Positions 1 through 14,114 of a DNA stretch of 14,246 bases are shown here, piece after piece (position 1 is the stretch's first letter; each line of letters starts with the position of its first letter). Where the stretch lies: positions 1 to 14,246 of IMG/VR virus record IMGVR_UViG_2690316231_000009, one strand, 5' to 3'. This DNA comes from a virus. Lineage: Duplodnaviria; Heunggongvirae; Uroviricota; Caudoviricetes. A program made the position numbers and the translations under genes. The notes under the pieces are model-generated. The model searched no databases, was not told the origin of the DNA, and saw only the letters and a program-made list of their open reading frames with translations.

Positions 1-431
1 TACTGCCCTTTGCTCAGGTCTGCCTTCGGATGATTCAGCGTACTCATATCCTGCACATCATGCAGGCAGTGGTCGGCCGGAATAATATCGTTATATCTGC
101 AGGCAGCCCCACCCGGCGTAACTGTACTGCGGCGCGCCAGCTGTTTAATGCGCGGATCCGGAGCATCGTATGAATCCGGCAGCGGAAGCCCTTCACCGTA
201 AGCCATGGCATTGGACTGCCCGGCCAGTACGATGACGTAGTACCAATCCGGCTCAGTTGCACCACTGACCACCACATCACCTTCTGCTGTAATCGCCTGC
301 ATCAGGGTATAAGGGGTTATGGCCACCGGACTACCAAACGGCTGCCAGCCCTCTTTCAGTTTGTGTGTCAGCTTTTCCGCAAGGTCTGACGGCGACGCCG
401 CCCTGACAACATCATAATGTTTAAATGTCAT
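1..431 (-). CDS. N-terminal part (about 143 codons) of a NanS-p-like prophage sialate O-acetylesterase (DUF1737-type N-domain followed by SGNH/SASA esterase); gene continues beyond the window start
   Basis: Minus-strand ORF open from ATG at 431-429 to the window edge, so it is absent from the ORF track (no stop in window). GGAGG Shine-Dalgarno (RC of 436-440) 4 nt upstream. Translation begins MTFKHYDVVRAASPSDLAEKLTHKLKEGWQPFGSPVAITPYTLMQAITAEGDVVVSGATEPDWYYVIVLAGQSNAMAYGEGLPLPDSYDAPDPRIK; the AGQSNAMAYGEG stretch matches the GQSN motif of sialate O-acetylesterases. Family assignment is from memory. Confidence 0.6.
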   Translation of the reverse strand, partial: MTFKHYDVVRAASPSDLAEKLTHKLKEGWQPFGSPVAITPYTLMQAITAEGDVVVSGATEPDWYYVIVLAGQSNAMAYGEGLPLPDSYDAPDPRIKQLARRSTVTPGGAACRYNDIIPADHCLHDVQDMSTLNHPKADLSKGQ

Positions 432-473
432 TATTCCTCCCGGCCGGGATAGTGTATTAAATCAGATATGGAG

Positions 474-520
474 TGGGCTGTAGTCCGGAAGCCTGAATGA
501 CACACGGGGACTACAGCCCA
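474..520. repeat. 13-bp perfect inverted repeat (TGGGCTGTAGTCC / GGACTACAGCCCA) with 21-nt spacer, upstream of the esterase gene
   Basis: Arms at 474-486 and 508-520 are exact reverse complements. No flanking T-tract on either strand, so not a canonical intrinsic terminator. Confidence 0.5.
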
Positions 521-616
521 AGAAATGAAAAAAGGCCACGCAGTTGCGCAGCCTGATAAACCCTGGTTAAAATCCACACGATAACAACACAACAATATCA
601 GTATCTCATGCTATTG

Positions 617-641
617 CCCGAACCCATTCGGGCATTTTTTA
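617..641 (+). terminator. Candidate rho-independent terminator, plus strand
   Basis: GCCCGAA (617-623) / TTCGGGC (628-634) 7-bp stem, 4-nt loop, followed by ATTTTTT (635-641). No plus-strand ORF lies upstream, so the terminated transcript is unknown. Confidence 0.45.
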
Positions 642-646
642 CCCAT

Positions 647-673
647 AAAAAATGCCCCTCCGGAGAGGGGCAT
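647..673 (-). terminator. Candidate rho-independent terminator, minus strand, downstream of the TerB-like gene and small hydrophobic ORF
   Basis: ATGCCCCTC (652-660) / GAGGGGCAT (665-673) 9-bp stem with CGGA loop; A6 at 647-652 gives a U6 tract immediately 3' of the hairpin on the minus-strand transcript. Confidence 0.55.
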
Positions 674-838
674 GTTTGCATGCACATTCTTTTTCTTGCA
701 TGGTGCCGGGTGCCTCCCGGTGAATTCAGTATCAGCACCTGAATCCGCGATTATCCCATATACCTGGTTGCTGATCGCCCCTCCGCACAGGGGGATTCAC
801 CATGCAGAAGTGTTTTTAATAAACAGCAAATAAAAAAA

Positions 839-1006
839 TCAAGCATTATGCAGGCTGTTTCTTTTTATCACCGGCCACAGCAATACCACAATGCCGCAGA
901 CCAGCACCCCATCCGCCAGCACCGACATGATTCTGCTGGTGAAATCCACCATCACCACCAGAAACAGCAGGAGTGCAGCCACAGCCAGGCGCAGTTTTAC
1001 CGTCAC
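839..1006 (-). CDS. Possible small hydrophobic (membrane) protein, about 55 aa, translationally coupled to the upstream TerB-like gene
   Basis: Not in the ORF track (GTG start). GTG at 1006-1004 overlaps the TGA stop (1005-1003) of the TerB-like ORF. Translation VTVKLRLAVAALLLFLVVMVDFTSRIMSVLADGVLVCGIVVLLWPVIKRNSLHNA has two hydrophobic stretches. Stop TGA at 841-839. No independent SD; may be spurious. Confidence 0.3.
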   Translation of the reverse strand: MTVKLRLAVAALLLFLVVMVDFTSRIMSVLADGVLVCGIVVLLWPVIKRNSLHNA

Positions 1007-1435
1007 AGGTGATTCTCCAGACGAAGACCCAGAACACCGGCAATCTCTTCCAGCACCTTGCGCTCTTCCGGCTCAATTTCGCCGTCTGCCTCCGCAATGG
1101 CCACCGCCACATCCAGCACATCTTCCGCTTCACGCGTATCGTGTTTCACATCCTCGATCTCACGTAACGCCGCACGACGACCAGTTTTAAAGTTCGTATC
1201 CAGCTGACCGATAATGGTTGCGCTAATCGCATTAATTTCCGAGGTAAACGCAGACAACGCAGGCTGATTACGTAAGACCTGTTCGATCTTCGCTTTCTCG
1301 GAAGCCTCACATTCACCATCTGCACAGGCCACCAGGTATGCGGCGTTAATCACCGCCTGTGCCAGATCGCGTTTTTCAAACTTTTTAATTTCCGTTGCCG
1401 CTCTGCGGGCTTTTTTTACCAAAAATACCAAACAT
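1003..1435 (-). CDS. TerB-like (tellurite-resistance TerB family) protein; reading frame interrupted by an apparent 1-nt frameshift in an A7 homopolymer (1411-1417)
   Basis: The long in-frame ORF (track 1003..1464) can only start at TTG 1464-1462. A well-placed ATG at 1435-1433, preceded by AAGGA 8 nt upstream, is in the adjacent frame and stops after 16 codons (MFGIFGKKSPQSGNGN). Removing one A from the A7 run joins it to the long frame, giving MFGIFGKK-ARRAATEIKKFEKRDLAQAV.... The protein has two ADGE-type motifs (LVACADGECEASEK and AIAEADGEIEPEER) typical of TerB-like domains. Confidence 0.6.
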
Positions 1436-1566
1436 CGTGACGTTCCTTTGGGTGGGTGAGCCAACGCCCGGGAGCGATCTGCCCACAGAGAAAGTCACAC
1501 TGACCACTCCGTAAGCTCCCCCCCGAAAGGCTCTGTGGTTGGTATGCGCCGGGCGTGGCGCAGATA

Positions 1567-1600
1567 CAAAAAAGGCCCGCAAAAGCGAGACGGGAAAATA
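1567..1600 (-). terminator. Weak candidate terminator after the tRNA cluster
   Basis: On the minus strand a short GC-rich hairpin (CCCG...CGGG) is followed by CCTTTTTTG (RC of 1566-1574). Stem is only about 4 bp, so support is weak. Confidence 0.25.
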
Positions 1601-1607
1601 AGTGTAG

Positions 1608-1681
1608 CGCGTTGTACTGGAGTCGAACCAGTGACCGATTGCTTAGAAGGCAATTGCTCTGTCCTGCTGAGCTAACAACGC
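1608..1681 (-). tRNA. tRNA-Arg (anticodon UCU); the 3' CCA is not encoded (genome gives CUA)
   Basis: Manual cloverleaf fold of RC(1608-1681): acceptor GCGTTGT/ACAACGC (7 perfect pairs), D-stem GCTC/GAGC, anticodon stem ATTGC/GCAAT with loop CTTCTAA (anticodon TCT), T-arm ACTGG-TTCGACT-CCAGT, discriminator G. Positions 1605-1607 read TAG, so the 3' tail would be CUA rather than CCA. Confidence 0.8.
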
Positions 1682-1694
1682 AGAATACCGATAA

Positions 1695-1771
1695 TGGACC
1701 ACCACCGGGGACTCGAACCTCGCGCAACCAGCTTCGAAGGCTGACGCTCTATCCCGATGAGCTAATGGCGG
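1695..1771 (-). tRNA. tRNA-Arg (anticodon UCG), with a slightly imperfect cloverleaf
   Basis: RC(1695-1771) = CCGCCATTAGCTCATCGGGATAGAGCGTCAGCCTTCGAAGCTGGTTGCGCGAGGTTCGAGTCCCCGGTGGTGGTCCA. D-stem GCTC/GAGC, anticodon loop CTTCGAA (anticodon TCG), T-loop TTCGAGT, encoded CCA. Acceptor stem has two G-U pairs, T-stem has one A-C mismatch and position 1 is C. Confidence 0.7.
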
Positions 1772-1778
1772 TATGTGA

Positions 1779-1854
1779 TGGTGGCCCTTGCTGGATTTGA
1801 ACCAGCGACCTGGCGATTATGAGTCGCTCGCTCTCACCACTGAGCTAAAGGGCC
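1779..1854 (-). tRNA. tRNA with CAU anticodon, most like tRNA-Ile2 (ileX/ileZ type); part of a phage ileZ-argN-argO-like cluster
   Basis: RC(1779-1854) = GGCCCTTTAGCTCAGTGGTGAGAGCGAGCGACTCATAATCGCCAGGTCGCTGGTTCAAATCCAGCAAGGGCCACCA. Perfect acceptor stem, anticodon loop CTCATAA, T-arm GCTGG-TTCAAAT-CCAGC, encoded CCA. Closely resembles E. coli tRNA-Ile2 as I recall it. Spacers to the neighbouring tRNAs are 7 and 13 nt. Confidence 0.85.
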
Positions 1855-1882
1855 GAGCCAAAAAATAATAATCAGATGAAAA

Positions 1883-2596
1883 TCAATAATCAAGCCCTTG
1901 CCTGGATACATATCTGTCTGGCGGGAAGCCATAATAGCGGTGAAATACAGAAATAAAGTAGGACCTGCTTGAATAACCGCATTTTTCTGCTATAGTCTGT
2001 CCATATCCATGCCGGGAACATAACATATTTACAGCAACACGCATCCGCTCTTCCAGCAACAAGCGACTGAACATGCCCCCTTCATTTTTCAGTTTTGTCT
2101 TTAACAAACTCTCACTCATATGCAACTGTAGAGCAATCGCACCAAGCGTCCAGCTTGCTGATATATCTGTCTGAATTATCGCCCTGACTTTGGCACTTAT
2201 GCTGGATAAACATCCACTTAAAAACAATGACATCCGTTCATCTGTTTCAAACAGAGACAGGCAGGCCATCATAAGAAACATATCCGTGGCCTCTCCGGAA
2301 AATCCCTGGCTGGTAATTAAAGCCGCAGCCAACGCAGGATTGTTGGGTTCCAGCAACAGGTAAAGCGGAATGTCAGTCAGACGAGTCCTCGTCAGCTTAT
2401 GCTGACTTTCCAGATATTGACTTACGACGGATTCGCTTATATCGACAATTTTAACTTTGCCATAATGCATAAGGAAAAGCTCCCTGATGCATTTGGTGGC
2501 CAGAACAACTGAGCCTGGCTTAAGTGACAACGTATCCTTTTCAAGAAAAATATTAATTGGGGAGCAAACCATGATAACTGAACAGACAACAGCCAT
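1883..2596 (-). CDS. AraC/XylS-family transcriptional regulator (prophage moron)
   Basis: 237-aa ORF; the C-terminal about 100 aa (SESLLKTKLKNEGGMFSRLLLEERMRVAVNMLCSRHGYGQTIAEKCGYSSRSYFISVFHRYYGFPP) is a typical AraC-type double HTH. AT-rich relative to flanking phage genes. ATG at 2596 has no clear SD; an in-frame ATG at 2572 is an alternative start. Confidence 0.8.
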   Translation of the reverse strand: MAVVCSVIMVCSPINIFLEKDTLSLKPGSVVLATKCIRELFLMHYGKVKIVDISESVVSQYLESQHKLTRTRLTDIPLYLLLEPNNPALAAALITSQGFSGEATDMFLMMACLSLFETDERMSLFLSGCLSSISAKVRAIIQTDISASWTLGAIALQLHMSESLLKTKLKNEGGMFSRLLLEERMRVAVNMLCSRHGYGQTIAEKCGYSSRSYFISVFHRYYGFPPDRYVSRQGLDY

Positions 2597-2717
2597 TATA
2601 ATTTTACTTTCATTAGCAATTGGTTAGCTCAATTATAGCCCCAAAAGGTAAATTATCATCAACACATAAGCAAAGGACTGACAGGTGTCGCCCCCCCACC
2701 AGCCGCCCATTCACCAC

Positions 2718-2744
2718 AAATAAAAAGCCTTCAGGACTGAAGGC
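2718..2744 (-). terminator. Rho-independent terminator of the small regulator gene
   Basis: GCCTTCA (2727-2733) / TGAAGGC (2738-2744) 7-bp stem with GGAC loop, overlapping the stop codon of the 2731..2928 ORF; followed on the minus strand by TTTTTATTT (RC of 2718-2726). Confidence 0.6.
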
Positions 2745-2928
2745 GTCTGTAACAACCGCACTGATAGTCTGCCAGACCCGCCATAACAAGCTGGGTCAGT
2801 ATTAACTGGCAGCGTTCGCGTGAAAGGTAAGTATTCTGCGCAATCTCCCCGACTGTCGCCGGTTCGGTAACGCTTAATTCATCAAACACAACTCTGGCGG
2901 TTTCTGTCATATCCTGCTGTTTCAGCAT
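2731..2928 (-). CDS. Small winged-helix regulator, PapI/FaeA-like (65 aa)
   Basis: ATG at 2928; own intrinsic terminator at the 3' end. MLKQQDMTETARVVFDELSVTEPATVGEIAQNTYLSRERCQLILTQLVMAGLADYQCGCYRRLQS has the size and helix pattern of PapI/FaeA-type fimbrial regulators. The family assignment is a structural guess from memory. Confidence 0.45.
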   Translation of the reverse strand: MLKQQDMTETARVVFDELSVTEPATVGEIAQNTYLSRERCQLILTQLVMAGLADYQCGCYRRLQS

Positions 2929-3053
2929 GTCTTTTTACCCTTTCCGGTTAACGTGACATACCAATAACTCTTGTCTAAAAAGCCAGCAAGATAAAAAGCC
3001 AGTATTCACGACCACCAGCGTGTTTACTGTACTGCACCAGGTTTACAGGTACA

Positions 3054-3137
3054 AAAAAACCGCTCAGCGGCGGGTTTAAGTTGTGTGGCGAAGTAACCAC
3101 TCTTAACAGCATATTTTATTTTTTACGATTGTAAACG
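3054..3137 (-). promoter_or_regulatory. Candidate promoter followed by a weak hairpin plus U7 terminator (possible Q-dependent late promoter / tR'-like element)
   Basis: Minus strand reads TTTACA (RC of 3132-3137), 16-nt spacer, TATGCT (RC of 3110-3115). About 40 nt downstream, CCGC-TGA-GCGG (RC of 3062-3072) is followed by TTTTTTT (RC of 3054-3060). The stem is only 4 bp, so the terminator call is weak. Confidence 0.3.
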
Positions 3138-3200
3138 GTTGATTATTCATCTCCAATAAAAATAATTGTGTGGGTATGCCCTTAACAATGGATAAGAAAC

Positions 3201-3647
3201 ATGAATAAAATGACTGTACTATTACTTAGCGCAACTATCATTTCAGGTTGTACTTCTTCCGTACCATTGATAAAGAAAACTCAATCAGGAAAACCTGAGG
3301 GGGTTTATCAAAATACGACAAAAGATAAAGTCAAAGATGCCCTTGTGAATTACTGCAATAGTAGAGGGTTGATAATTTACAACGCGGATAACAGCAGTGT
3401 TATATGTGGTAAAGAACTGGAAGGCGGCTCTGCTGTTTTTGGACAAATGTTAATCGGCAATGCCTATTCAACAACCCCGGTATCAAAAGTCAGATTTACT
3501 ATCGCTCAAGTTAATAACGATACAAAAGTGTGGGCCGATATGTGGATGGAAACTCAAATGGCAATGGGGCAAGTACAACAAATGTCTATAACAGACAACG
3601 CAAGCAAAAACACTATCCAACAACGTCTTGATGAATTAAAACCTTAA
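3201..3647 (+). CDS. Lipoprotein of unknown function (148 aa), AT-rich moron convergent with Q
   Basis: N-terminus MNKMTVLLLSATIISGCTSS has a positively charged n-region, hydrophobic core and lipobox ISGC. Markedly lower GC than surrounding phage genes. Opposite strand to the lytic operon. Confidence 0.7.
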   Translation: MNKMTVLLLSATIISGCTSSVPLIKKTQSGKPEGVYQNTTKDKVKDALVNYCNSRGLIIYNADNSSVICGKELEGGSAVFGQMLIGNAYSTTPVSKVRFTIAQVNNDTKVWADMWMETQMAMGQVQQMSITDNASKNTIQQRLDELKP

Positions 3648-3648
3648 A

Positions 3649-3686
3649 TAAATTAAATAAAATGGGGAGAATAAATCGACTCCCCA
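3649..3686 (-). terminator. Rho-independent terminator just downstream of Q, lying between the convergent Q and lipoprotein genes
   Basis: TGGGGAG (3663-3669) / CTCCCCA (3680-3686) 7-bp stem with 10-nt loop; on the minus strand it is followed by TTTTATTTAATTTA (RC of 3649-3662). Confidence 0.5.
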
Positions 3687-3727
3687 CACATTAAACTGAT
3701 TCAATTACCCCCTCAATAAGAGGTCTT

Positions 3728-4093
3728 CTAACGATCCATCTCTAGCTCAATTTCTAACATCATTAACATGCCATCAACTACACCTTCAGCTTTTTGCAAT
3801 AAACGCCCAACCCAGCAATCAGAACGCCCATGTTTACGGGCAAGCGCCATAAAAGTCATACCACCTACATAATAATCCACTAATAAATCGTGCAAATCGC
3901 TGTTGTTCTTTTTCAGGCGAGCCATGCATCCACAAATGATCATCGCGTCATCGTCACAACATTGCGGGCGGGATTTTACTTTTGAAGGGATTAGTCCTTT
4001 AAATCCTGCAGCAATAGACGACCAGGTGACATCCTCGTGATTATTTGCCACCCATGCCCCCCAACGTTCAAGAACCATTTGAATATCACGCAT
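3728..4093 (-). CDS. quuD: Late-gene antiterminator Q, QuuD-like
   Basis: Starting at ATG 4093-4091 (GGAG SD 7 nt upstream) the protein reads [75 protein letters not shown]..., which I recognise as very close to the DLP12 prophage antiterminator QuuD (YbcQ). The track start at 4108 is a TTG extension. Confidence 0.8.
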
Positions 4094-4110
4094 CAACTTT
4101 CTCCACAAAA

Positions 4111-5106
4111 TCAGGCCAGCACGCCAATTGCCAGCGCACGATCGATAAAACGAAATATCAGCTCCAGCTGGGAGCCATACTTCTCTTCAAATGCCACGGT
4201 ATCCGCATGCAGCTCGTCGTGATGCTTTCTGCACAAAGGCAACACAAAAAGGTCATGCGCTTTTGTTCCCATTCCACCCTGACCGTGACCTATCAGGTGG
4301 TGGGGATCATCAGCGGGCTTTCCACAACATGCACACGGCTGTGTCTTAACCCAGCGCGTGTACTTTTCATTAACCCAGCGGCGACGTTTTGGGCGTAACA
4401 TAAAAGACTCCGGCGACTCCGGATCCACTTTCAGCGCCAGCACCTTTTTCGCCTTATCCTGGATGATGCTGGTGGCAGGAACCGAAGGCACAAGGTCACT
4501 TTCCCGGGTAACAGACGGCACAACAGGCTTCGGTAATCTCAGTGCCTTACGGGCTGCACTTTCCGGTAAGGCATCCGCCAGATCATTACGAATCAGCCAC
4601 CAGCACAGTTCCGGCATTGTCACAACGTGACTGTCATCAAAACCGAGATCCCGACGCACAACAGACAACACCCAGCGGGCACAGTTATCCGTTGCCATTG
4701 ATTCCAGCCGTTCCGTGAACTGATCGCGCAGCTGGTTATCGCAGTGCCAGCACAGACGGATTGCACCCGGAGCGTGTCGCATTGTGGTCATGTTCTCGCT
4801 GTGCCAGTCGGAATGAGGCCACTGGCAGCCTTTTTCACGAAGTAACCAGCTTTCAAGACATTCCACGCCACCAGCACGACGGATCACTGCCTCATTGCGG
4901 AACACGGCCCGAACGGCAGGATCATCCGCCAGCGGTTGTGATGCCGCCGGAACGGCACCACTGGCGAAAGATGAATAACGCTCCGGCTCAGGCTCCAGCA
5001 GGACACGCCCCTGCATAAACAGGGGCATCAGCTCTGAACCTGGCCTGAACAATACGATCCCCATACGCGGGGCAATTTCAGGGGTCAGTAGTGCTCTCAC
5101 GGTCAC
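4111..5106 (-). CDS. DUF968-family protein (HNH-like Cys/His motif), lambdoid nin-region type
   Basis: 331-aa ORF; C-terminal [45 protein letters not shown] matches the DUF968 signature. GTG start at 5106 lies 1 nt after the KilA-N stop (coupled); exact start uncertain. Confidence 0.75.
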
Positions 5107-5107
5107 C

Positions 5108-5917
5108 TCAATGAACGGTATCGAGCAGCTTTAACAGCTCAGGGAATCGGGATTCGAAGAAATGCGGCTGCGTCTCGCGCGGATTTGCGGGACTGGTGAT
5201 GTTCTTGCCGAACATGCAGCCTTTCGCTGTCAGCGACCAGAATTTTTTGATGTTGTTAATCGCGGTACGACTGTATCGTTCGCGCTGCTCGACGATCCCC
5301 AGTTTCACCATCTGGTGATATGCCTGATTAGCCGTCAGGCGTATACCATACTGTTTCAGCAGTGCACTCAGTGACAGTGTCGGGCGACTTGAGCCATCGT
5401 GTGCATCAGCAGGAGCATCAATGGCATAGCGCGGTGCCAGATTCGGTAAGCCAACAGCCTCCTGGAGTTTCTGACAGGCACCAAGCACAGATGAGTTAGA
5501 CAGGTTTAACTCCCGACGCATAAAGTCCAGCAGAATCACACCAGCCTGCATCTTGTCAGCAGCCTGTCCGGATAATTTTTCCGGTGCGCTGGTTACCATG
5601 TCGAAAGTACGGATCACCTTAAGATGGAATGACGGGCTTATCCACATTGCATAGGCATACACCAGTTCTTTGCAGACATACGTTCCCCGTTCATTTCCCC
5701 CATGAATCACACTCACCGGGTCAACACCCAAATTCTGGGTGTTGGTCAATTCATGAACAAGTTCAACAGTTTGTTGGCTGGAAAGAAACTTTCCTGGCTC
5801 CTTGGTTCTGGCATTTGCACCAGATGCTACTGCTGCGCGATGTAGATCGTTCAGGCTGTAACGCCCATAAACATCACGACGAACTTCAATACCATCAATG
5901 ACCATCAGATTATTCAT
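5108..5917 (-). CDS. KilA-N domain protein (putative antirepressor-like)
   Basis: Best start is ATG 5917-5915 with AGGAG 9 nt upstream (MNNLMVIDGIEVRRDVYGRYSLNDLHRAA...); the track start at 5950 is an 11-codon extension. The N-terminal about 110 aa (...GGNERGTYVCKELVYAYAMWISPSFHLKVIRTFD) is a KilA-N domain. Confidence 0.75.
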   Translation of the reverse strand: MNNLMVIDGIEVRRDVYGRYSLNDLHRAAVASGANARTKEPGKFLSSQQTVELVHELTNTQNLGVDPVSVIHGGNERGTYVCKELVYAYAMWISPSFHLKVIRTFDMVTSAPEKLSGQAADKMQAGVILLDFMRRELNLSNSSVLGACQKLQEAVGLPNLAPRYAIDAPADAHDGSSRPTLSLSALLKQYGIRLTANQAYHQMVKLGIVEQRERYSRTAINNIKKFWSLTAKGCMFGKNITSPANPRETQPHFFESRFPELLKLLDTVH

Positions 5918-5936
5918 ACTTCGTTTCTCCTCTTGA

Positions 5937-6326
5937 TCAGGCGGCTGCACCCGCCGTTTTCTCGTACTTACTGATAGTGATCTCGACCTTCCCTTTCGGG
6001 ATAACCGGTCCCCACTCCACCAGCATTCTTTTCACCTGACTGTCGTCTTCCCACACACCCGCGTGGGTCAGGGCGTCAAACAGCGCCTTGTTATAGTTGT
6101 CCAGATCGCGGATCCTGTTATCCGGAGGAAACAACACGATCTCCACTGAAGCAGGTGCCGACGTTGGTTTCGGCAGACGACGTAACTGCTCAATGATGGC
6201 GGCACACGCCGCGCTCTGAAATTTTCGCCCCGCCTCGCTTATCAGGCTCTTACCAGCAAATGCCCCTTTGTTGGGGTGTCGCCAGTACGTGTTCACGCTG
6301 GGCGGAAAAGGCAGTATTAGCTTCAT
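5937..6326 (-). CDS. rusA: RusA-family Holliday junction resolvase
   Basis: 129 aa; MKLILPFPPSVNTYWRH...VEIVLFPPDNRIRDLDNYNKALFDALTHAGVWEDDSQV matches RusA hallmarks (PxxxN..YW N-terminus, acidic RDLDN catalytic region). ATGA overlap with the upstream methyltransferase stop. Confidence 0.85.
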   Translation of the reverse strand: MKLILPFPPSVNTYWRHPNKGAFAGKSLISEAGRKFQSAACAAIIEQLRRLPKPTSAPASVEIVLFPPDNRIRDLDNYNKALFDALTHAGVWEDDSQVKRMLVEWGPVIPKGKVEITISKYEKTAGAAA

Positions 6327-6976
6327 GCCACCATCTCCCTGACCAGTTTTTCCGCCTGCTGGCGAACCTGCGCCAGAAAGGCCTCACCACATGCCTCAAG
6401 TTCATCGCGCCCGATGTAGCTGATTGCCGGTCCCTTCCAGGTCTTGTCGAAAACAGCAATAGCACCAGCGAAGAAAGCGCCTGTCGGCACCTGCTTCTCA
6501 TCCTTCGGGATAAACCAGGCAGGCAGTTCAAAACCAATACGCCCGCGAATAAAAGTAATATGGTCCGCATCTTCCGGCCACCACACTTCGCTGGTGGCCG
6601 CTTTGATCAGGAAAACATAGCGCCCGCCCTTATCACGCATGGCACTGGCATGTTTCATGATGTAACGCATGCCGGTGATGTATTGCCCCTCATGCTGACT
6701 GGCGCGGCTGTATGGGGGATTACCAAAGGCAGCACCTTTAAGCTCCGCAAGACGTTCTGACCAGTCATGCGCCAGCGCGTTGTCTTCCGCCGTGTAATAC
6801 GCGGCACATTTGGCGTTATCACCGTCAGTGAACAGATCCAGAACAAACGGACCAAACAAGGTGTTAATTCCCCAGAAAATGTTGTCCGGCGTGCGCCACT
6901 GATCGCCCACTTCCTTCAGTTCATGGGCTGGTTTGTTCCGCAGTTCTACCAGCGCCTGGCAATATTTATTACTCAT
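6323..6976 (-). CDS. Phage N6-adenine DNA methyltransferase (orphan, Dam-like)
   Basis: Start ATG 6976-6974 with GGGGG SD 4 nt upstream (MSNKYCQALVELRNK...); the track start at 7021 is an extension. Contains the amino-MTase motif IV GNPPY (AAFGNPPYSRAS). No adjacent restriction endonuclease gene. Confidence 0.8.
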   Translation of the reverse strand: MSNKYCQALVELRNKPAHELKEVGDQWRTPDNIFWGINTLFGPFVLDLFTDGDNAKCAAYYTAEDNALAHDWSERLAELKGAAFGNPPYSRASQHEGQYITGMRYIMKHASAMRDKGGRYVFLIKAATSEVWWPEDADHITFIRGRIGFELPAWFIPKDEKQVPTGAFFAGAIAVFDKTWKGPAISYIGRDELEACGEAFLAQVRQQAEKLVREMVA

Positions 6977-7070
6977 TAAGCCCCCACGTAAAAAGCATCC
7001 GCAATGTCTCCGGAAGTACACCCCGGATGGGCTTCAATGAATTTCTGAACTTCATTCAAAAGACTCATGA

Positions 7071-8066
7071 TCACCCCCTGAATCCTTCCGGGATCTGGCT
7101 GTAGTCCACGTTGTCGTAACTGGCTTTGAAGTACGGGTCCTCGCGTCTGGCTGCAGATACCGCAGGAACTTCCCAGGATTCTTCGAAATGACGATCCGGA
7201 CCAAAGAACGTCGACGCCTGCTTCACGAACTGGGTACCGGTATTTCCAGAGACACGCACCCAGGCGGCATAGCGTTTCACACCGTCGAGCATGGTTTCGG
7301 GTGTCACACCTTCCCTGATTCGGGCTTTCCAGGCTTTAAAAGCGGCGGATTTTGAATTACCACCAGCACGTTTGGGATATTCCTGCCAGGCCTGTTCAAA
7401 TTCCGGTGAATATTCCTGTCTGGCAGAACGCGCTGGTGCAGACGCGTCAGCGGATGCGCCAATAGTGTTTTTAGTCTCCGTTGTAATCTCTGTAGTAATC
7501 TCTGTAGTAATCTCTGTATTTGTATCAACATTCGGCGTATCCCCTGTTCCGTTATGACGTCGGGGGGTGTTCCGTTTTAACGTAATAGCTGTATCGCTGA
7601 TTGCATTATTGCTGTTACTTTCTGGCGAAACAGAAGAAGGTGTGGTGATGGCCGCAATTGCCTGTGGGTTGATCCCGACAAACAAAATATTGCTGCATTT
7701 CACCCCATCGAGCATTTCCACCGTGCGTAAATCCAGAGTAATAAACCCTGCATCGCGCAGACGCTTCAGCGCATCTGCGGTTTCCCTTTTCCCGAAACCA
7801 AACTGCTCAGCAAACGCCTGGTAGCTTCTTTGCAGTTTGTCGCCCTGAAAACGCTTGCGATATCCCAGCAACGCTCCGGTGTGCTCATCCCTGACCTCTG
7901 TCGGGCGGTACCAGTAAACGATCTCTGAAAGCAGAGCGATAGCCGTCGCATCCGGACGCCCACTGGGTAGTCGAATATATTTCCACCAGGTCGCAGGTGT
8001 AACATTGCCGGAAATATTAATTTGACCAATAGCCATAACTTCCGGTGTGGGGGCGTAACGGCTCAT
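7071..8066 (-). CDS. Putative phage replication initiator / replisome organizer (O-like) with internal tandem repeats
   Basis: 331-aa ORF; ATG 8066 with AAGGAGG SD; ATGA overlap with the upstream ORF. It sits where lambdoid phages place the replication initiator and contains 12-bp tandem repeats encoding TEITTEITTEITTE. Function is inferred from position and the embedded repeats, not from a recognised motif. Confidence 0.5.
   Translation of the reverse strand: MSRYAPTPEVMAIGQINISGNVTPATWWKYIRLPSGRPDATAIALLSEIVYWYRPTEVRDEHTGALLGYRKRFQGDKLQRSYQAFAEQFGFGKRETADALKRLRDAGFITLDLRTVEMLDGVKCSNILFVGINPQAIAAITTPSSVSPESNSNNAISDTAITLKRNTPRRHNGTGDTPNVDTNTEITTEITTEITTETKNTIGASADASAPARSARQEYSPEFEQAWQEYPKRAGGNSKSAAFKAWKARIREGVTPETMLDGVKRYAAWVRVSGNTGTQFVKQASTFFGPDRHFEESWEVPAVSAARREDPYFKASYDNVDYSQIPEGFRG
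7471..7518. repeat. Tandem 12-bp direct repeats (three exact or near-exact copies plus one degenerate), candidate origin iterons inside the replication gene
   Basis: TAATCTCTGTAG at 7483-7494 and 7495-7506, TAATCTCTGTAT at 7507-7518, preceded by the degenerate copy TAGTCTCCGTTG at 7471-7482. In-frame within the 7071..8066 CDS. Confidence 0.75.
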
Positions 8067-8362
8067 ACAACCTCCTTCCGCAGCATGAGAATTGTGTAGC
8101 CACGCGCAGGTTGTAGTCTGGCTTTTGCATCAATAGTAAGCGTTGCAATTTTTCGGATATGAAGATAACCAGCTCTTTCCAGTGCCAGGGTTTCCCTGAA
8201 TATCGCTTGCTTAGAACAACAGCAGAAATCAGCAAGCACCTGATGATCAATAACTCTCTCGCCTTCACCGTCTGAAGAACCCGACATCAAAACACGCAAC
8301 ATAATCAGGCGCTGAATCGGGTTATCGAAAGCACATCCGCACACAAACTGAAAACAGTTCAC
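8063..8362 (-). CDS. Hypothetical protein (99 aa), possibly HTH-containing
   Basis: GTG start at 8362-8360 overlaps the stop of the upstream ORF (GTGA); its stop overlaps the start of the replication gene (ATGA). No family recognised. Confidence 0.45.
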   Translation of the reverse strand: MNCFQFVCGCAFDNPIQRLIMLRVLMSGSSDGEGERVIDHQVLADFCCCSKQAIFRETLALERAGYLHIRKIATLTIDAKARLQPARGYTILMLRKEVV

Positions 8363-8583
8363 GCCACACCTCCCAGACGCTTAAACATTTTTCCGGAGCA
8401 AAAGGCTATAAGCGGCATACTGACGCGGTAATTACGGCCCAGCGGTTCACAAACCACCTTCTGACATTCACGGTCAACCAGGCTAACACGTAGAACATGC
8501 CCAGCAGGCGTGGTGTACCACTGACCCGGACGAGGACAACGGAAAGTATGATTGGTAAACCGTTTGAAAATATTCCGGATCAT
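8359..8583 (-). CDS. Hypothetical protein (74 aa)
   Basis: ATG 8583-8581 overlaps the TGA stop of the Rha ORF (ATGA). No recognisable motif. Confidence 0.4.
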   Translation of the reverse strand: MIRNIFKRFTNHTFRCPRPGQWYTTPAGHVLRVSLVDRECQKVVCEPLGRNYRVSMPLIAFCSGKMFKRLGGVA

Positions 8584-9740
8584 TTGCGCCCCCTTACCTC
8601 TGAAGGGTTCAGCGACAAATTTATGAGACTGGCCAGCGCCGAAGCATCATTAATATAGTCATATAAGCTAACAGCCAGCGGAGATTCGGCTTTTGCCAAC
8701 ATAGGATAAAGCTGCTGCAGCCAGACCTGATGAATTGATGAAATGTAGGAACAGAGAACGCTGGCGTTATGTGCAACGTCGCTCGGTACAGCGGGCTTTG
8801 AAAGCTGTTTCTCCATCTGGTTAAAGGCATTTATGTATGCCTCTTTGAACCGGGCAGCACGTTTACCCGTGAAACCCATAGCAAGAAACGCAAAACCGTC
8901 TCGTGTGATTTGATAGCAAGGGAGCTTGCGTGTACCACCGTTCGGTTGATTTACCGAAATCGATGTCTCCGCAAAATTGCGGGCACAAAACTCTGGGGAA
9001 CAATCCAGAGTGCGGATCTTTTTCAGCACATCGTCGTGACGCTTGGAGAAGAAGTTGGCAACAGCCAAAGAAGTGGTAACGGCCTGGCCGTTGTCAATGG
9101 TGATTTCAGGTTGAGTGAGGGCTGGGATCGTAGCCATGATGGCAGCCTCCGTTGACAGTGAAAAACTTCCACCACCGGAAACGCCAATTTCACTGGTGGT
9201 GAACTGGACGGGGTTGGCGTAACCGGCGTCAACGGAGACCGGCGCACCTTTCGGTGCCCCCGCCCAGCCCACCATAATCTGGATGTGAGCAAATGCGGAC
9301 GATAAAAAAGACGCTGGCGCGTCATACATCGCCGTTGACAATTTCAGGACGCCAATCCCGGCACCCGCTTTATAAGGTGCCTGAGCAGTGTAACGTCCCG
9401 GAATTGCAGAATCAATATGCTGGTGGTCCTTCACACTCAACAAAATCACGCCTGAATTTCCACAAAGGACTAAAGCACTCATGCGGGTAGTCTTTGCGAA
9501 GATAGATAACGCGCTGTGTTTCTGGCTCCCAACGAATAACATGGACATAAAGCCCTCTTCCGTCACGAAACCAGCGGTTAAGTTCCTGCACAACTCGCCC
9601 CCCACAGTCAGGTAAAGTTCTCTGTGGTTACTTACAGCCAGGTGATTTGGTAATCTGCATTCATGCCGTAACAACAGGTGTTCAGCGACGCTGACCACCA
9701 GCTGTTGCGACAAACGGTTATTTGCCGTTAAACTATTCAT
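8580..9740 (-). CDS. Rha-family phage regulatory protein with an about 200-aa N-terminal extension of unknown function; strong internal start at 9137
   Basis: 386-aa uninterrupted ORF. Residues about 220-310 (LAVANFFSKRHDDVLKKIRTLDCSPEFCARNFAETSISVNQPNGGTRKLPCYQITRDGFAFLAMGFTGKRAARFKEAYINAFNQME) form a Phage_pRha domain. ATG 9740 overlaps the CII-like stop (ATGA). An internal ATG at 9137 with GGAGG 8 nt upstream would give a 185-aa stand-alone Rha protein (MATIPALTQPEITIDNGQAV...). Confidence 0.6.
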   Translation of the reverse strand: MNSLTANNRLSQQLVVSVAEHLLLRHECRLPNHLAVSNHRELYLTVGGELCRNLTAGFVTEEGFMSMLFVGSQKHSALSIFAKTTRMSALVLCGNSGVILLSVKDHQHIDSAIPGRYTAQAPYKAGAGIGVLKLSTAMYDAPASFLSSAFAHIQIMVGWAGAPKGAPVSVDAGYANPVQFTTSEIGVSGGGSFSLSTEAAIMATIPALTQPEITIDNGQAVTTSLAVANFFSKRHDDVLKKIRTLDCSPEFCARNFAETSISVNQPNGGTRKLPCYQITRDGFAFLAMGFTGKRAARFKEAYINAFNQMEKQLSKPAVPSDVAHNASVLCSYISSIHQVWLQQLYPMLAKAESPLAVSLYDYINDASALASLINLSLNPSEVRGRK

Positions 9741-10294
9741 GCGTTAGTTTCTCCACAACCAGAAGCAATCGACGCCACGACGCCCGGAGCTGCACACTCG
9801 CGGGCGTTACTATTTTCTGGAGCGCAGAAGATTTTGTAGACCAGTGCTGCATGCTCCTGGAGCTTCGAAATTGAAAGATACAGTTCGTCGTTAATTGCTG
9901 TCTTCTCATGCGGTTCCACTACACCGTCTTCGATTGCTGAACGAATCTGTTTTGAATAACTGCCGATCTGTTCAATGACTTCCAGTAAACGCTGGTTAAT
10001 ATCGGCATTGTCCACATCCTCGACGTCAGGAAGAGACACAAAGACGCCATTTGCAGACTGCGCCACAGCGTCAGCAATGAAGTGAGTGCCACCAGCACGT
10101 TGTAAAATCATTGCCCATCCCAGCGGGAAAATCTGATCGCCATCGGCACGAAGGCGGTTAAATAATGCGTTCTCTGTTACATCCAGCCACTCAGCAGCTT
10201 CAGCGTAACCCTCCGGCAACGCCGCGATAGTTTTTCTGACAGCTTTCACGTACCACTCAGGCTGTTTTTCCACTTTCCAGTGATGATTACCCAC
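9737..10294 (-). CDS. Putative CII-like lysogeny regulator (phage 186 CII / CP76-like), 185 aa
   Basis: GTG start at 10294 with AGGAGG 6 nt upstream; immediately downstream of cro, where lambdoid phages place cII. Assignment rests on position and loose resemblance only. Confidence 0.4.
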   Translation of the reverse strand: MGNHHWKVEKQPEWYVKAVRKTIAALPEGYAEAAEWLDVTENALFNRLRADGDQIFPLGWAMILQRAGGTHFIADAVAQSANGVFVSLPDVEDVDNADINQRLLEVIEQIGSYSKQIRSAIEDGVVEPHEKTAINDELYLSISKLQEHAALVYKIFCAPENSNARECAAPGVVASIASGCGETNA

Positions 10295-10547
10295 GGCTTA
10301 CCTCCTGTTCCTGTGGTTTAAACCCATTCTGGTTTTGGCTAGATTGAAAACGTGCCGGATAAAGAATCTGCATTTCGCTGATTTCACCCTTAAAAAAATT
10401 GGCCAGACGTTCTGCAAGATCGATAGATGGAATTTGTTCCAGTCTTTCAATACGACTCAGCGTCGCTGGATTGACCTGAACGCCAGCAGCAACATGCTGC
10501 AAAGTAAATCCGTGCGCCTTACGCACATTCCGTAATGGTGATTGCAT
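10287..10547 (-). CDS. Cro-like HTH (XRE-family) regulator
   Basis: 86 aa; MQSPLRNVRKAHGFTLQHVAAGVQVNPATLSRIERLEQIPSIDLAERLANFF is a canonical XRE HTH. Divergent from the repressor gene across an operator-rich spacer; GGAGG SD upstream of ATG 10547. Confidence 0.75.
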   Translation of the reverse strand: MQSPLRNVRKAHGFTLQHVAAGVQVNPATLSRIERLEQIPSIDLAERLANFFKGEISEMQILYPARFQSSQNQNGFKPQEQEVSRG

Positions 10548-10644
10548 ATGACCTCCACATATTGCGTGATGAGCATATTATTTCACGCAAATATTTTGCG
10601 CAAGTTGATTTGCTTAACGCGCAATAAAGAAATGTAATAAACGC
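10548..10644. promoter_or_regulatory. Immunity-region divergent promoter/operator spacer (OR-like) with repeated TTGCG...CGCAA palindromic elements
   Basis: TTGCGTGA (10562-10569) / TCACGCAA (10583-10590) and TTGCGC (10596-10601) / GCGCAA (10619-10624) form two 29-bp inverted repeats of identical geometry. TTGCGCAA (10596-10603) is an 8-bp palindrome. TTGCTTAACGCGCAA (10610-10624) resembles the 15-mers found downstream of cI. Confidence 0.6.
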
Positions 10645-11337
10645 ATGAACATAGGAAACCGAGTCAGACAACTTCGCCAGGCGAAGAACATGAAAATCGC
10701 CGATCTCGCTGAAGCAATAGGAGTGGATGCGGCGAATATCTCACGCCTGGAAACAGGTAAGCAGAAACAATTCACTGAACAAGCCCTGAGTAATATTGCC
10801 AGGAGCTTAGGTGTTGATATTGCTGATCTCTTTACCTCAGACGTCAAAAGTAATACTGTATGTAAAAACAGTATTAGTGAGGATGTTGCGCAGGTGAAGG
10901 ATGTATTCCGTATTGAAATGCTGGATGTCAGTGCCAGTGCGGGAAATGGCCTTATCCAGGGCGGTGATGTCATTGATGTGATTCATGCCATTGAATACAG
11001 AACTGATAATGCTGTATCGATGTTTGGCGGACGGCCAGCCAATCACATTAAAGTTATCAACGTTCGTGGGGACAGTATGTGTCCAACCATTGAGCCAGGA
11101 GATCTCATCTTCGTTGATGTCAGTATCAATCAGTTTGATGGAGATGGTATCTATGTATTTGGTTTTGATGATAAAATTTATGTCAAACGACTGCAAATGA
11201 TACCTGACAAACTACTGGTGATTTCTGATAACCAGATTTACCGTGAATGGGGAATTACCAGCGAAAATGAACACCGGTTTATGGTCTTTGGAAAGGTCTT
11301 AATCAGCCAGTCACAAACCCTTAAGCGACACAATTAA
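10645..11337 (+). CDS. CI-type prophage repressor (HTH_XRE N-domain plus S24 LexA-like autopeptidase C-domain)
   Basis: 230 aa; N-terminal HTH (VRQLRQAKNMKIADLAEAIGVDAANISRLETGK); Ala-Gly cleavage site (SASAGNG); catalytic Ser in GDSMCPTI and Lys in YVKRL. No SD precedes the ATG at 10645. Confidence 0.9.
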   Translation: MNIGNRVRQLRQAKNMKIADLAEAIGVDAANISRLETGKQKQFTEQALSNIARSLGVDIADLFTSDVKSNTVCKNSISEDVAQVKDVFRIEMLDVSASAGNGLIQGGDVIDVIHAIEYRTDNAVSMFGGRPANHIKVINVRGDSMCPTIEPGDLIFVDVSINQFDGDGIYVFGFDDKIYVKRLQMIPDKLLVISDNQIYREWGITSENEHRFMVFGKVLISQSQTLKRHN

Positions 11338-11357
11338 CCCTTACCTCCTCATCAATT

Positions 11358-11382
11358 AGCCACCCAAAGGTGGCTTTTCATT
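11358..11382 (+). terminator. Rho-independent terminator downstream of the repressor gene
   Basis: AGCCACC (11358-11364) / GGTGGCT (11369-11375) stem with CAAA loop, followed by TTTTCATT. Confidence 0.6.
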
Positions 11383-11392
11383 ACCCTTTAAA

Positions 11393-11446
11393 TTGCATAT
11401 CTCGCAATAAAAACACTTGCATAATGCGCAACTTCATTTTATCTTT
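11393..11446 (+). promoter_or_regulatory. Candidate OL/pL region: two 15-bp operator-like elements overlapping a promoter-like sequence
   Basis: TTGCATATCTCGCAA (11393-11407) and TTGCATAATGCGCAA (11417-11431) share the TTGC-N7-GCAA layout seen in the cI-cro spacer. TTGCAT (11418-11423) followed 17 nt later by TATCTT (11441-11446) is promoter-like. Confidence 0.35.
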
Positions 11447-11876
11447 CTTTCCAGACAAACAAACAAGGTACTAACAAAATTTGGTTGTAACACGACGTAT
11501 GGCACATGCGTCGTTAGCGGTCTGGGGACGTTAAAGGGGACAATCCACTCCTTGCTCGAGCAAACAAACCAGGTAGCCGGAATGTGCAAGTCAATGATGA
11601 TGCTGATAAGACGCCTAACCAGCGTGGCGGTTCGGTTTGACACCTGGGAAGAGACCAGGGTGCAACGATGAGGGCATTTATGGAACCGCGACAAAGTGTG
11701 GTGCCGTAACTGGCTAAGTGCTCTCAGCGTTGTGGTGAATGCGCAGGCTGATGCGCGAAAGACATTGCAGCTATTGCGGAAAAGAGCTGTTCGGCGGGGC
11801 AATTAAACGCCCGTGAGAGTCTGAAATAACCGCAAGCCGGAGATCAGCACCGGTCACCACAACAGCCACTGCTTTG

Positions 11877-11923
11877 GCGGTACCAGTTTGTACACTTGCT
11901 TCCGGCTGGTACCGCTCTTTTTA
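11877..11923 (+). terminator. Candidate intrinsic terminator/attenuator in the early-left leader; its T-tract resembles a boxA element
   Basis: GCGGTACCAG (11877-11886) / CTGGTACCGC (11906-11915) 10-bp stem with 19-nt loop, followed by TCTTTTTACAAAA. CGCTCTTTTTA (11913-11923) resembles boxA (lambda CGCTCTTA; rrn GCTCTTTAACAA). Confidence 0.35.
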
Positions 11924-12059
11924 CAAAACAGAGAAGAGCATCACCGGCCGACGGGCTCATAACCCAATCCATCCGGGCGGCTGCCACCGCAGGTGTTCTT
12001 CTCTGTTTTGTGGAGAAACCAACCGACCTTGCAGGGTCGATATGATGAGGAGCAGCAAA

Positions 12060-12422
12060 ATGGCTAGCGAACGCAGTACTGATGTGCAGGCATTTATCGG
12101 GGAGCTGGACGGCGGCGTATTTGAAACCAAAATCGGCGCTGTTCTCAGTGAAGTCGCTTCCGGTGTGATGAATACGAAAACCAAAGGTAAGGTCTCGCTC
12201 AACCTGGAAATCGAACCATTTGATGAGAACCGTGTGAAAATCAAACACAAACTCTCATATGTTCGCCCGACTAACCGCGGGAAAATTTCCGAAGAAGACA
12301 CCACCGAAACGCCGATGTATGTCAATCGCGGTGGTCGCCTGACTATTCTGCAGGAAGACCAGGGACAATTACTGACTCTTGCCGGTGAACCTGACGGAAA
12401 ACTCCGCGCAGCAGGTCATTAA
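12060..12422 (+). CDS. Hypothetical early-left protein, YfdP-like (120 aa)
   Basis: ATG 12060 with GAGGAG 7 nt upstream (MASERSTDVQAFIGELDGGVFETKIGAVL...). The track ORF 11874..12422 adds an implausible upstream extension. Resemblance to CPS-53 YfdP is from memory. Confidence 0.5.
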   Translation: MASERSTDVQAFIGELDGGVFETKIGAVLSEVASGVMNTKTKGKVSLNLEIEPFDENRVKIKHKLSYVRPTNRGKISEEDTTETPMYVNRGGRLTILQEDQGQLLTLAGEPDGKLRAAGH

Positions 12423-12487
12423 TATCGTTTTTAATAAACTGATTATTTCTCTCATCACTGAATATTTTTATATAGTGAGGACTTATT

Positions 12488-13312
12488 ATGTCTCAGAACT
12501 TAGACGCAACCGCAATTAATCAAATCCATGCCCTTATTTCTGCTCAGGGTGTTAATGAAATTATCAGTAAGATTGGTGCCGATGCTGTGGCATTGCCTGA
12601 GAATTTCCGCATTCATGATCTGGAAAAATTTAATTTAAATCGTTTCCGTTTCCGTGGTGCGCTTTCCACTGCCAGCATCGATGACTTTACTCGTTATTCT
12701 AAAGATCTTGCAGATGAAGGCACCCGCTGCTTTATCGATGCCGATAATATGCGTGCCGTCAGTGTGCTTAACCTGGGTACTATTGATGAGCCAGGTCACG
12801 CAGATAACACTGCCACTCTCAAACTGAAAAAGACAGCACCGTTCTCTGCTCTGTTGTCTGTTAATGGCGAGCGTCATTCCCAGAAGTCACTGGCAGAATG
12901 GATTGAAGACTGGGCCGACTACCTTGTGGGCTTTGATGCTAATGGTGACGCTATTCAGGCAACAAAAGCGGCTGCGGCTGTCCGTAAAATCACGATTGAA
13001 GCAAACCAGACCGCTGATTTTGAAGATAATGACTTCAGCGGCAAACGCTCCCTGATGGAGTCTGTCGAAGCGAAAACCAAAGATATTATGCCAGTGGCAT
13101 TTGAATTTAAATGCGTTCCGTTTGAAGGTCTGAAAGAACGTCCATTTAAATTACGCCTCAGCATTATCACTGGCGATCGTCCTGTACTGGTTCTGCGCAT
13201 TATTCAGCTGGAGGCGGTGCAGGAAGAAATGGCTAACGAATTTCGTGATCTGCTTGTTGAGAAATTCAAAGACAGCAAAGTAGAAACCTTTATTGGTACT
13301 TTCACCGCCTGA
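12488..13312 (+). CDS. DUF2303-family protein, YfdQ-like (274 aa)
   Basis: ATG 12488 with GTGAGG 7 nt upstream. Sequence [40 protein letters not shown]...[11 protein letters not shown] matches my recollection of E. coli CPS-53 YfdQ in length and sequence. Confidence 0.65.
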
Positions 13313-13324
13313 TTTCATTACTGC

Positions 13325-13346
13325 AAATGCCCCTGCGGGGGCATTT
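13325..13346 (+). terminator. Hairpin between the YfdQ-like and YfdR-like genes (weak terminator or attenuator)
   Basis: AAATGCCCC (13325-13333) / GGGGCATTT (13338-13346) 9-bp stem with TGCG loop; the downstream T-tract is short. Confidence 0.3.
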
Positions 13347-13439
13347 ATGGAAACGTAATTGACTCAATAATCGCCGGATGGTGAGGGCTTCCTTTTACCA
13401 GAATTCAGCGTGGTGCAGCACATATACGCGGAGAACAAA

Positions 13440-13964
13440 ATGTCATTTATTAAAACTTTTTCCGGGAAGCATTTTTATTATGACAGGATAAATAAAGACG
13501 ACATCGTGATTAACGATATCGCGGTTTCCCTTTCAAATATCTGTCGCTTTGCCGGTCATCTTTCACACTTCTACAGTGTCGCCCAACATGCGGTGCTTTG
13601 CAGCCAGCTGGTGCCGCAGGAATTTGCTTTTGAAGCGTTAATGCATGATGCAACAGAAGCGTATTGCCAGGACATCCCCACGCCGCTGAAACGTCTTCTT
13701 CCTGACTATAAACGGATGGAAGAAAAAATAGACGCCGTAATCCGTGAGAAATACGGGTTACCCACGGTTATGAGCACGCCTGTGAAATATGCCGATCTCA
13801 TCATGCTGGCAACCGAACGCCGCGATCTCGGGCTTGATGATGGCTCTTTCTGGCCTGTACTGGAAGGTATCCCGGCAACAGAGATGTTCAAAGTTATTCC
13901 ACTGTCGCCAGGCCATGCCTATGGGATGTTTATGGAACGCTTTAAAGAGTTAACTGAGTCGTAA
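13440..13964 (+). CDS. HD-domain phosphohydrolase, YfdR-like (5'-deoxynucleotidase family), 174 aa
   Basis: ATG 13440 with GGAG 6 nt upstream (MSFIKTFSGKHFYYDRINKDDIVINDIAVSLSNICRFAGHLSHFYSVAQHAVL...LMHDATEAY...). The H...HD metal-binding motifs are present. The track start at 13410 is an extension. Confidence 0.7.
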   Translation: MSFIKTFSGKHFYYDRINKDDIVINDIAVSLSNICRFAGHLSHFYSVAQHAVLCSQLVPQEFAFEALMHDATEAYCQDIPTPLKRLLPDYKRMEEKIDAVIREKYGLPTVMSTPVKYADLIMLATERRDLGLDDGSFWPVLEGIPATEMFKVIPLSPGHAYGMFMERFKELTES

Positions 13965-14072
13965 AAATCAGCACGTACGAATTCAAACTCTGCCATAAAA
14001 GAACATATAAGTAATTTATTAACATATAGATATAGGTTATATTACAAATTGAAAAATTATTGGAGAGCAACA

Positions 14073-14114
14073 ATGAATCAAAATCCATTCTCATTCTATG
14101 ACTTTCTTGGATAT
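14073..14114 (+). pseudogene. 5' remnant (14 codons) of a gene truncated by the IS2 insertion
   Basis: ATG 14073 with GGAGAG 5 nt upstream; reads MNQNPFSFYDFLGY and then runs directly into the IS2 terminal inverted repeat, whose first three bases (TAG, 14115-14117) supply the stop. Confidence 0.4.

Follow-up and report, generated by a model that had tools for sequence, protein, structure and literature searches.

An inherited frameshift allele of tciA, a TerB-family gene of lambdoid Escherichia coli prophages, as a probable case of ordinary gene decay

Organization of the late region

The window, that is the whole stretch of 14,246 nucleotides analysed here (IMG/VR record IMGVR_UViG_2690316231_000009, positions 1 to 14,246), carries all of its relevant genes on the minus strand. 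Read in this direction, the Q antiterminator gene is followed by phage tRNAs, a TerB-family gene (tciA), a DUF3927 gene (tciB) and the N-terminus of a nanS-p-like gene. The Q gene (3728-4108, minus; PF06530, 2.1e-51) anchors the late operon on its upstream side. It is separated here from the tRNAs by an AraC-like regulator and two small genes. The regulator, an AraC-family HTH protein of 237 aa (1883-2596, minus), matches PF00165/PF12833 and PHROG 1450, a family of unknown function, and presumably resembles the prophage-encoded EHEC regulators of the Psr/PatE type. A 148-aa ORF (3201-3647, plus; PHROG 3152, E 3e-104), for which the Pfam and PADLOC searches gave no match, lies between Q and the late genes; since it is found on the opposite strand, the pR' late transcript would pass antisense through it.

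The phage tRNA triplet (1607-1854, minus) is located upstream of tciA and consists of tRNA(CAU), tRNA-Arg(UCG) and tRNA-Arg(UCU). The tRNA at 1779-1854 (minus) is called tRNA-Met (CAU) by ARAGORN and tRNA-Ile by PGAP on an identical gene; it is presumably of the lysidine-modified Ile2 type, as is trnI of P1. Between the last tRNA and tciA, a terminator-like hairpin followed by a T-run (1576-1589, minus) can be recognized by consensus match only. The body of tciA (1003-1431, minus) is followed by the tciB homologue (839-1006, minus), which encodes a hydrophobic DUF3927 protein of 55 aa (PF13064, 4.3e-17; PHROG 1470, 4e-30) and whose GTG start overlaps the tciA stop (GTGA). The nanS-p-like esterase is represented by its N-terminal part, containing the DUF1737 domain (431-1, minus), and continues beyond the end of the window. 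This gene order, after Q and the tRNAs and before the nanS-p-like gene, is the one that had been described from the sequence alone, and it suggests that tciA would be expressed from the Q-dependent late transcript (pR'). No tciC was found after tciB in the window: the sole small ORF (751-846) is only 17-23% identical to TciC, with Met1 as the only conserved column, and this stretch matches the sRNA STnc100.

The same flanks are found in the Stx phages, with the tRNA triplet upstream and nanS-p, holin and endolysin downstream. An Stx2a phage has its stx2AB genes flanked by the same triplet of tRNAs and by nanS-p, so that the original prediction was correct in placing the gene in the slot equivalent to stx. 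The window differs by its cargo, tciAB instead of the toxin genes, and by the AraC-like regulator and the two small genes between Q and the tRNAs. Escherichia phage JLK-2012 has the order Q, tRNAs, tciA, tciB, yjhS, S, R and Rz. Two sRNA genes, AgvB (579-640, plus; Rfam 96.5 bits), the anti-GcvB sRNA of EHEC prophages, and STnc100 (641-831, minus; Rfam 143 bits), stand back to back between tciB and nanS-p, each with a terminator-like hairpin; together with tciAB, they occupy the slot held by stxAB in Stx phages. In the early region, a C4 antisense RNA (9192-9279, minus; 81 bits) lies beside isrK (9304-9380, minus; 62 bits), within a gene annotated as a Rha-family regulator; this pair constitutes a P1/P7-type antisense immunity element in a lambdoid prophage. 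PADLOC gave no defence-system match beyond one sub-threshold hit (E 0.002).

A TerB-family moron and its relatives

The long ORF containing the tciA body (153 aa) matches the Pfam TerB family PF05099 over residues 36-148 with 55.7 bits (cut-off 24.4; E 7.5e-15), and PHROG 632 over 141 of 143 positions (E 5.6e-66). The latter family is classed as moron by PHROGs, as is PHROG 1470, to which tciB belongs. The family profile can be aligned with the TerB structure 2JXU of the PDB over 123 residues (E 7e-11), and the TerB-like identity proposed from the sequence alone is upheld by these three matches. Both acidic DGxxxxxE motifs are intact in the window (ADGECEASE and ADGEIEPEE), and D39, G40, E46, D117, G118 and E124 are invariant in an alignment of seven proteins. 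An AlphaFold model built from an alignment of 30 sequences (pTM 0.79) is predicted to be all-helical, and its nearest PDB entries in Foldseek are 2h5n (prob 1.00, TM 0.52-0.58) and 2ou3 (prob 0.80). Both entries are proteins with a TerB-like fold, in line with what had been suggested, but the structure-match E-values are weak (0.03-0.8). This model replaced one computed from the single sequence, which reached a pTM of 0.40 and whose Foldseek matches were meaningless.

Once the reading frame is repaired, the full-length protein is 41% identical to TciA of P1, 52% to TerB of P7 and 66-71% to proteins of Erwinia jumbo phages. Further relatives are found in phages of Klebsiella, Salmonella, Pseudomonas and Vibrio, and 131 phage records match in a tblastn search. 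The DUF3927 protein is 50% identical to TciB of P1. The two genes form the tciA-tciB module, an accessory (moron) element, here in a lambdoid prophage of E. coli. The likeness to P1 and P7 extends to a full-length alignment of TciA that includes the MxGxxxKK N-terminus and both DG...E motifs, and to the tRNA genes that adjoin the module in both; as in P1, tciB directly follows tciA with an overlapping or abutting start. The window differs from P1 by the lack of tciC, by the position of the module in a lambdoid late operon, between tRNAs and nanS-p rather than beside ban, and by the frameshift of tciA at codons 7-9. With the TerB of the tellurite-resistance cluster terZABCDE (Klebsiella TerB, PDB 2JXU), the window protein shares the Pfam TerB domain and the profile match given above; it differs by the absence of other ter genes nearby and by its partner, which is the 55-aa hydrophobic protein and not TerC. 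The adjacency of tciA-tciB to tRNA genes is observed in unrelated phages (P1, P7, Erwinia phage pEa_SNUABM_6, JLK-2012 and the window), and the tRNA species concerned differ (Ile2, Thr, Asn, Gly, Trp, Cys, Arg).

By its sequence, TciA is predicted to be a cytoplasmic TerB-domain protein and TciB a small hydrophobic protein. By analogy, one may speculate that they would form a membrane-associated stress-buffering pair made late in infection. The tci names in P1 and other phage records were given by homology only. A CRISPRi screen scored tciA, tciB and tciC of P1 as non-essential (PMC10695390). Concerning the function of TciA or the present frameshift, the literature search returned only homology-based names, this P1 CRISPRi score and transcript changes in an hfq mutant. 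The view that a TerB-like protein would be unusual as late-operon cargo did not hold: tciA-tciB is known from P1/P7, is widespread in P1-like, lambdoid and jumbo phages, and has its start region matched in about 650 of the 5,426 complete E. coli genomes. Phage and E. coli records already annotate this known gene family, together with its partner and its location, and the allele survey reported here is a minor novelty.

The start of tciA and the distribution of its alleles

The ATG at 1435-1433 (minus) is the sole ATG preceded by a Shine-Dalgarno sequence (AAGGA, 1448-1444, minus), which lies 8 nt from this ATG and 12 nt from the TTG at 1431. It opens an ORF of just 16 codons, MFGIFGKKSPQSGNGN (1435-1385, minus), closed by a TAA at 1387-1385. 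The long minus-strand ORF (1003-1464), which counts 153 codons from a TTG, is in the +1 frame with respect to this ATG (1435-1005 = 430; 430 mod 3 = 1). The clash announced in the original prediction, between the only ATG with a ribosome-binding site and the TerB-like body, can thus be read directly from the sequence, and its assignment to a single extra A in the A7 homopolymer at 1411-1417 (minus; T7 on the plus strand) also stands: removal of one base between the ATG and the body fuses them into a protein of 143 aa. As it is, a complete ORF starting from the conserved ATG with MFGxFxKK is absent from the window and those codons form a separate 16-aa peptide. In identical DNA from a lambdoid prophage of avian E. 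coli strains (e.g. E2), PGAP instead places the start at the TTG at 1431, names the 142-aa product a "tellurite resistance TerB family protein" and flags no frameshift.

The homologues indicate where the ancestral gene began. In seven proteins (the repaired window product, lambdoid alleles and the proteins of an Erwinia jumbo phage, P7, P1 and LMessi), M1, G3 and K7 are invariant. When 29 homologues are considered, 27 have the conserved hydrophobic-G-hydrophobic-KK N-terminus in frame, with G3 nearly invariant; the two exceptions are P0054, which has a divergent start (MLNIF), and P0098, itself a frameshift-derived call. P1, P7, Erwinia phages and other homologues share the MFGxFxKK-type N-terminus, and the tblastn alignments to most phage homologues start at residue 1. 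The AAGGA sequence is kept in all tabulated alleles, and the in-frame E. coli alleles share the same Shine-Dalgarno sequence and the same ATG. The conservation of the ATG, the Shine-Dalgarno sequence and the N-terminal codons in in-frame homologues argues that the frame clash is not due to chance. The homologues start at the ATG, and not in the long frame with an N-terminal extension; the apparent "extension" of 33 codons, which reaches the TTG at 1464, is an untranslated leader in another frame.

At the position of the run, the in-frame alleles have either A6 or AAAAAGAAAA. An in-frame sister allele, GGTAAAAAAGCCCGCAGAGCGGCAACG, found at four loci and in eight complete genomes, is the window leader with A6 in place of A7. 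Given that the homologues start at the ATG with a conserved N-terminus, A7 reads as a +1A insertion into an ancestral A6, at codons 7-9; the alignment thereby answers the question, raised with the original prediction, of which of the two runs is ancestral.

To estimate allele frequencies, 5,426 complete genomes of E. coli were searched for exact matches to the start region (72-74 nt). The A7 leader (an exact 73-mer) is the commonest allele of this set, with 554 genomes, as compared with 386 for the AAAAAGAAAA leader, 104 for a second A6 haplotype, 8 for the same haplotype with A6 and none for the same haplotype with A8, counts that are inflated by the clonal sampling of EHEC lineages and whose ancestry is blurred by recombination. 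A7 is present in EDL933 and in 13 metagenome contigs, 4 of which are identical to the window over 433 nt. Several body haplotypes are associated with it. Among the complete genomes, 46 records are of the window type and at least 149 of a type with a premature TAG, these two figures being bounds only, derived from the identity bands in searches with 130-mers. The majority of O157:H7 genomes have a third haplotype, whose body is intact. The A7 allele is old and widely inherited; descent, together with recombination among lambdoid prophages, would account for its spread. The O157:H7 genome NZ_AP018488.1 contains both a copy with A7 and TAG and an in-frame copy in another prophage, an instance of redundancy.

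Decay of the A7 allele and competing explanations

Further lesions were scored by exact-pattern scans of IMG/VR, which retrieved 46 A7 loci and 105 in-frame loci. A GAG to TAG change at the conserved Glu of the first DGxxxxxE motif is present in 31 of the A7 loci versus 4 of the in-frame loci (Fisher p 1e-16, at the level of loci that are not independent; a haplotype-level version, based on approximate counts, is not relied on). The same TAG is found in 7 of the 12 informative A7 loci of the metagenomes. The impression given by IMG/VR that most A7 alleles are doubly broken fails in the complete genomes, where the A7 haplotype met most often is that of O157:H7 and its body is intact. The pN/pS ratio is 0.03 for the in-frame alleles (pS 0.27) and 0.30 for all A7 alleles, with values of 0.17 for those without TAG and 1.03 for those with TAG, which shows that constraint on the A7 alleles is relaxed. 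Variants private to A7 comprise 5 non-synonymous and 1 synonymous changes, including a D to E change in the second DG motif, versus 14 and 60 for those private to the in-frame alleles (p 0.0025); when only the rare in-frame variants are taken for comparison (11:14), the contrast is not significant (p 0.17). Other independent lesions were encountered in tciA, namely a G deletion in TTTGG, internal stops and frameshifts, and two protein calls (P0011 and P0098) are derived from frameshifts. The window copy shows the first lesion (A7) only, with an intact body, and tciB is intact in nearly all A7 loci. A recurrent Trp to stop change in tciB (...VVLL*PVIK) was observed in several IMG/VR loci whose tciA has another lesion (the G deletion or TAG), from which it appears that both genes of the module decay in some prophages.

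These observations are probably best explained by an inherited loss-of-function, or strongly hypomorphic, allele of tciA, a known and dispensable accessory gene, that results from ordinary gene decay, with no programmed switch. The +1A insertion at codons 7-9 would have been inherited and, as its consequence, ribosomes loaded at the conserved Shine-Dalgarno sequence and ATG would make only the 16-residue peptide. The TerB body would be reachable only from the poorly placed TTG at 1431, with its 12-nt spacer and overlapping ATG, or by rare slippage, so that the allele would be null or a strong hypomorph; we infer that translation from this TTG is low. A7 would be neutral, or nearly so, in prophages and would have spread by descent and recombination, and the window copy would represent the first step of decay, with its body still intact. 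Loss of function in the copies with an intact body (the window and the A7 allele of O157:H7) is deduced from their sister alleles. Recent inactivation had been one of the readings proposed for this frameshift: inactivation or attenuation is indeed the most likely outcome, while "recent" does not apply to an old allele, widely inherited on several body haplotypes. The situation is reminiscent of the homopolymer-indel pseudogenes of defective prophages, with a one-base insertion in a short 5' A-run, then nonsense and neutral-looking substitutions in part of the lineage; it differs from them by the unusual frequency of the A7 tciA allele and by the intact body of many copies, including that of the window.

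The main rival to this decay is a functional hypomorph, in which the A7 allele would be translated from the TTG at 1431 or from a GTG at 1353 and maintained as the source of a working TerB protein in smaller amounts. The TTG is the start chosen by PGAP, the full Pfam TerB domain lies downstream of it, and the TTG-start product departs from the ancestral protein in no more than the first 5-6 residues (MVFLV versus MFGIFG, both hydrophobic), which leaves room for a residual function. The intact body of the window and of the common O157:H7 haplotype, the pN/pS of 0.17 for A7 alleles without TAG and the preservation of tciB in nearly all A7 loci point in the same direction. A well-spaced ATG that overlaps a TTG should, however, capture the ribosomes, and the TTG at 1431 is 12 nt away from the Shine-Dalgarno sequence. 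In addition, the conserved N-terminal motif is lost, more than half of the A7 alleles in two collections (IMG/VR and metagenomes) have a premature TAG, and the changes private to A7 are in a ratio of 5 non-synonymous to 1 synonymous. Taken together, this makes a maintained hypomorph unlikely. Less likely still is that the breakage of tciA is selected rather than neutral, TciA being costly to lysogens or sensed by a host defence. In favour of such selection, a gene of 430 bp on which purifying selection is otherwise very strong (pN/pS of 0.03 for the in-frame alleles) is repeatedly hit by at least three independent lesions (A6 to A7, the TTTGG G deletion and Glu to TAG), the broken leader is the commonest one in complete E. 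coli genomes, and tciB stays intact. If the breakage were selected, prophages would gain by silencing or attenuating TciA, for example by moving initiation to a weak overlapping TTG.

The remaining readings, transcriptional slippage apart, had been listed in the original prediction, and none of them fits the data well. Homopolymers are mutational hot spots, and both A6 and A7 forms of an otherwise identical 73-nt leader exist, as expected if the run were a slippage-prone contingency site where A6/A7 flips switch TciA on and off. Against such phase variation, the genomes divide into 554 with A7, 8 with A6 and none with A8, and IMG/VR contains no A6/A7 pair that agrees at all other positions across about 1 kb. 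Even the in-frame locus of IMG/VR that comes closest to an A7 locus departs from it at 5 of 1,067 flanking sites and has another leader, a pattern that speaks for patches of recombination and not for slippage of the run. Seven As are moreover short for a contingency tract, one allele with an interrupted run (AAAGAAA) is still shifted, and TAG accumulates on A7 alleles. A switch of this kind is highly improbable. Equally improbable is the restoration of full-length TciA by programmed +1 frameshifting or transcriptional slippage on AAA AAA A. It is true that the ATG frame needs exactly a +1 shift inside a run of lysine codons, on which tRNA-Lys can re-pair, and that the frame would also be recovered in an mRNA with one A fewer or two more. 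A two-frame layout is nevertheless not a conserved trait, since the diverse homologues, with the exception of a few calls derived from frameshifts, are read in a single frame from the ATG; the codon in the A site is AGC, which is not a stop codon and is not a rare one; no stimulator resembling a Shine-Dalgarno sequence is found just upstream; and the 76 nt past the run fold no better than shuffled sequences (z -0.54). The allele with the broken run, still shifted, also speaks against recoding, nonsense mutations are tolerated downstream, and purifying selection on the downstream frame of the shifted alleles is not supported (TAG in 31/46 and 7/12 loci; pN/pS 0.30 versus 0.03). The genes known to use transcriptional slippage have roughly nine As, and seven falls below this number. 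A -1 frameshift on A_AAA_AAG was considered and rejected: since the body occupies the +1 and not the -1 frame, the logic of the classic -1 heptamer is inapplicable. Finally, indels in homopolymers are typical errors of some sequencing platforms, and a sequencing or assembly error had been envisaged. Many laboratories, working with various platforms, have nevertheless obtained the same 73-mer (554 complete genomes), which also recurs in IMG/VR and in independent metagenome assemblies, and particular SNPs in the flanks, as well as a second lesion, are associated with A7; a sequencing error is therefore excluded.

The frame clash is thus a real inherited allele, and it would be a mistake to take it for recoding or phase variation. 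Its relevance is small beyond annotation hygiene. By choosing the TTG start, annotation pipelines hide the lesion behind a 142-aa "TerB family protein", and as a result surveys of pangenomes or morons count as intact many copies that are probably dead. The natural A6, A7 and TAG alleles provide ready near-isogenic material for the study of tciA-tciB function. In public protein sets, hundreds of truncated or alternative-start "TerB family" entries originate from frameshifted and nonsense alleles; the clusters P0045 (847 members), P0077 (462) and P0043 (284) contain MVFLV starts and fragments that begin just past the TAG, and such entries indicate that broken alleles inflate the apparent diversity of the protein.
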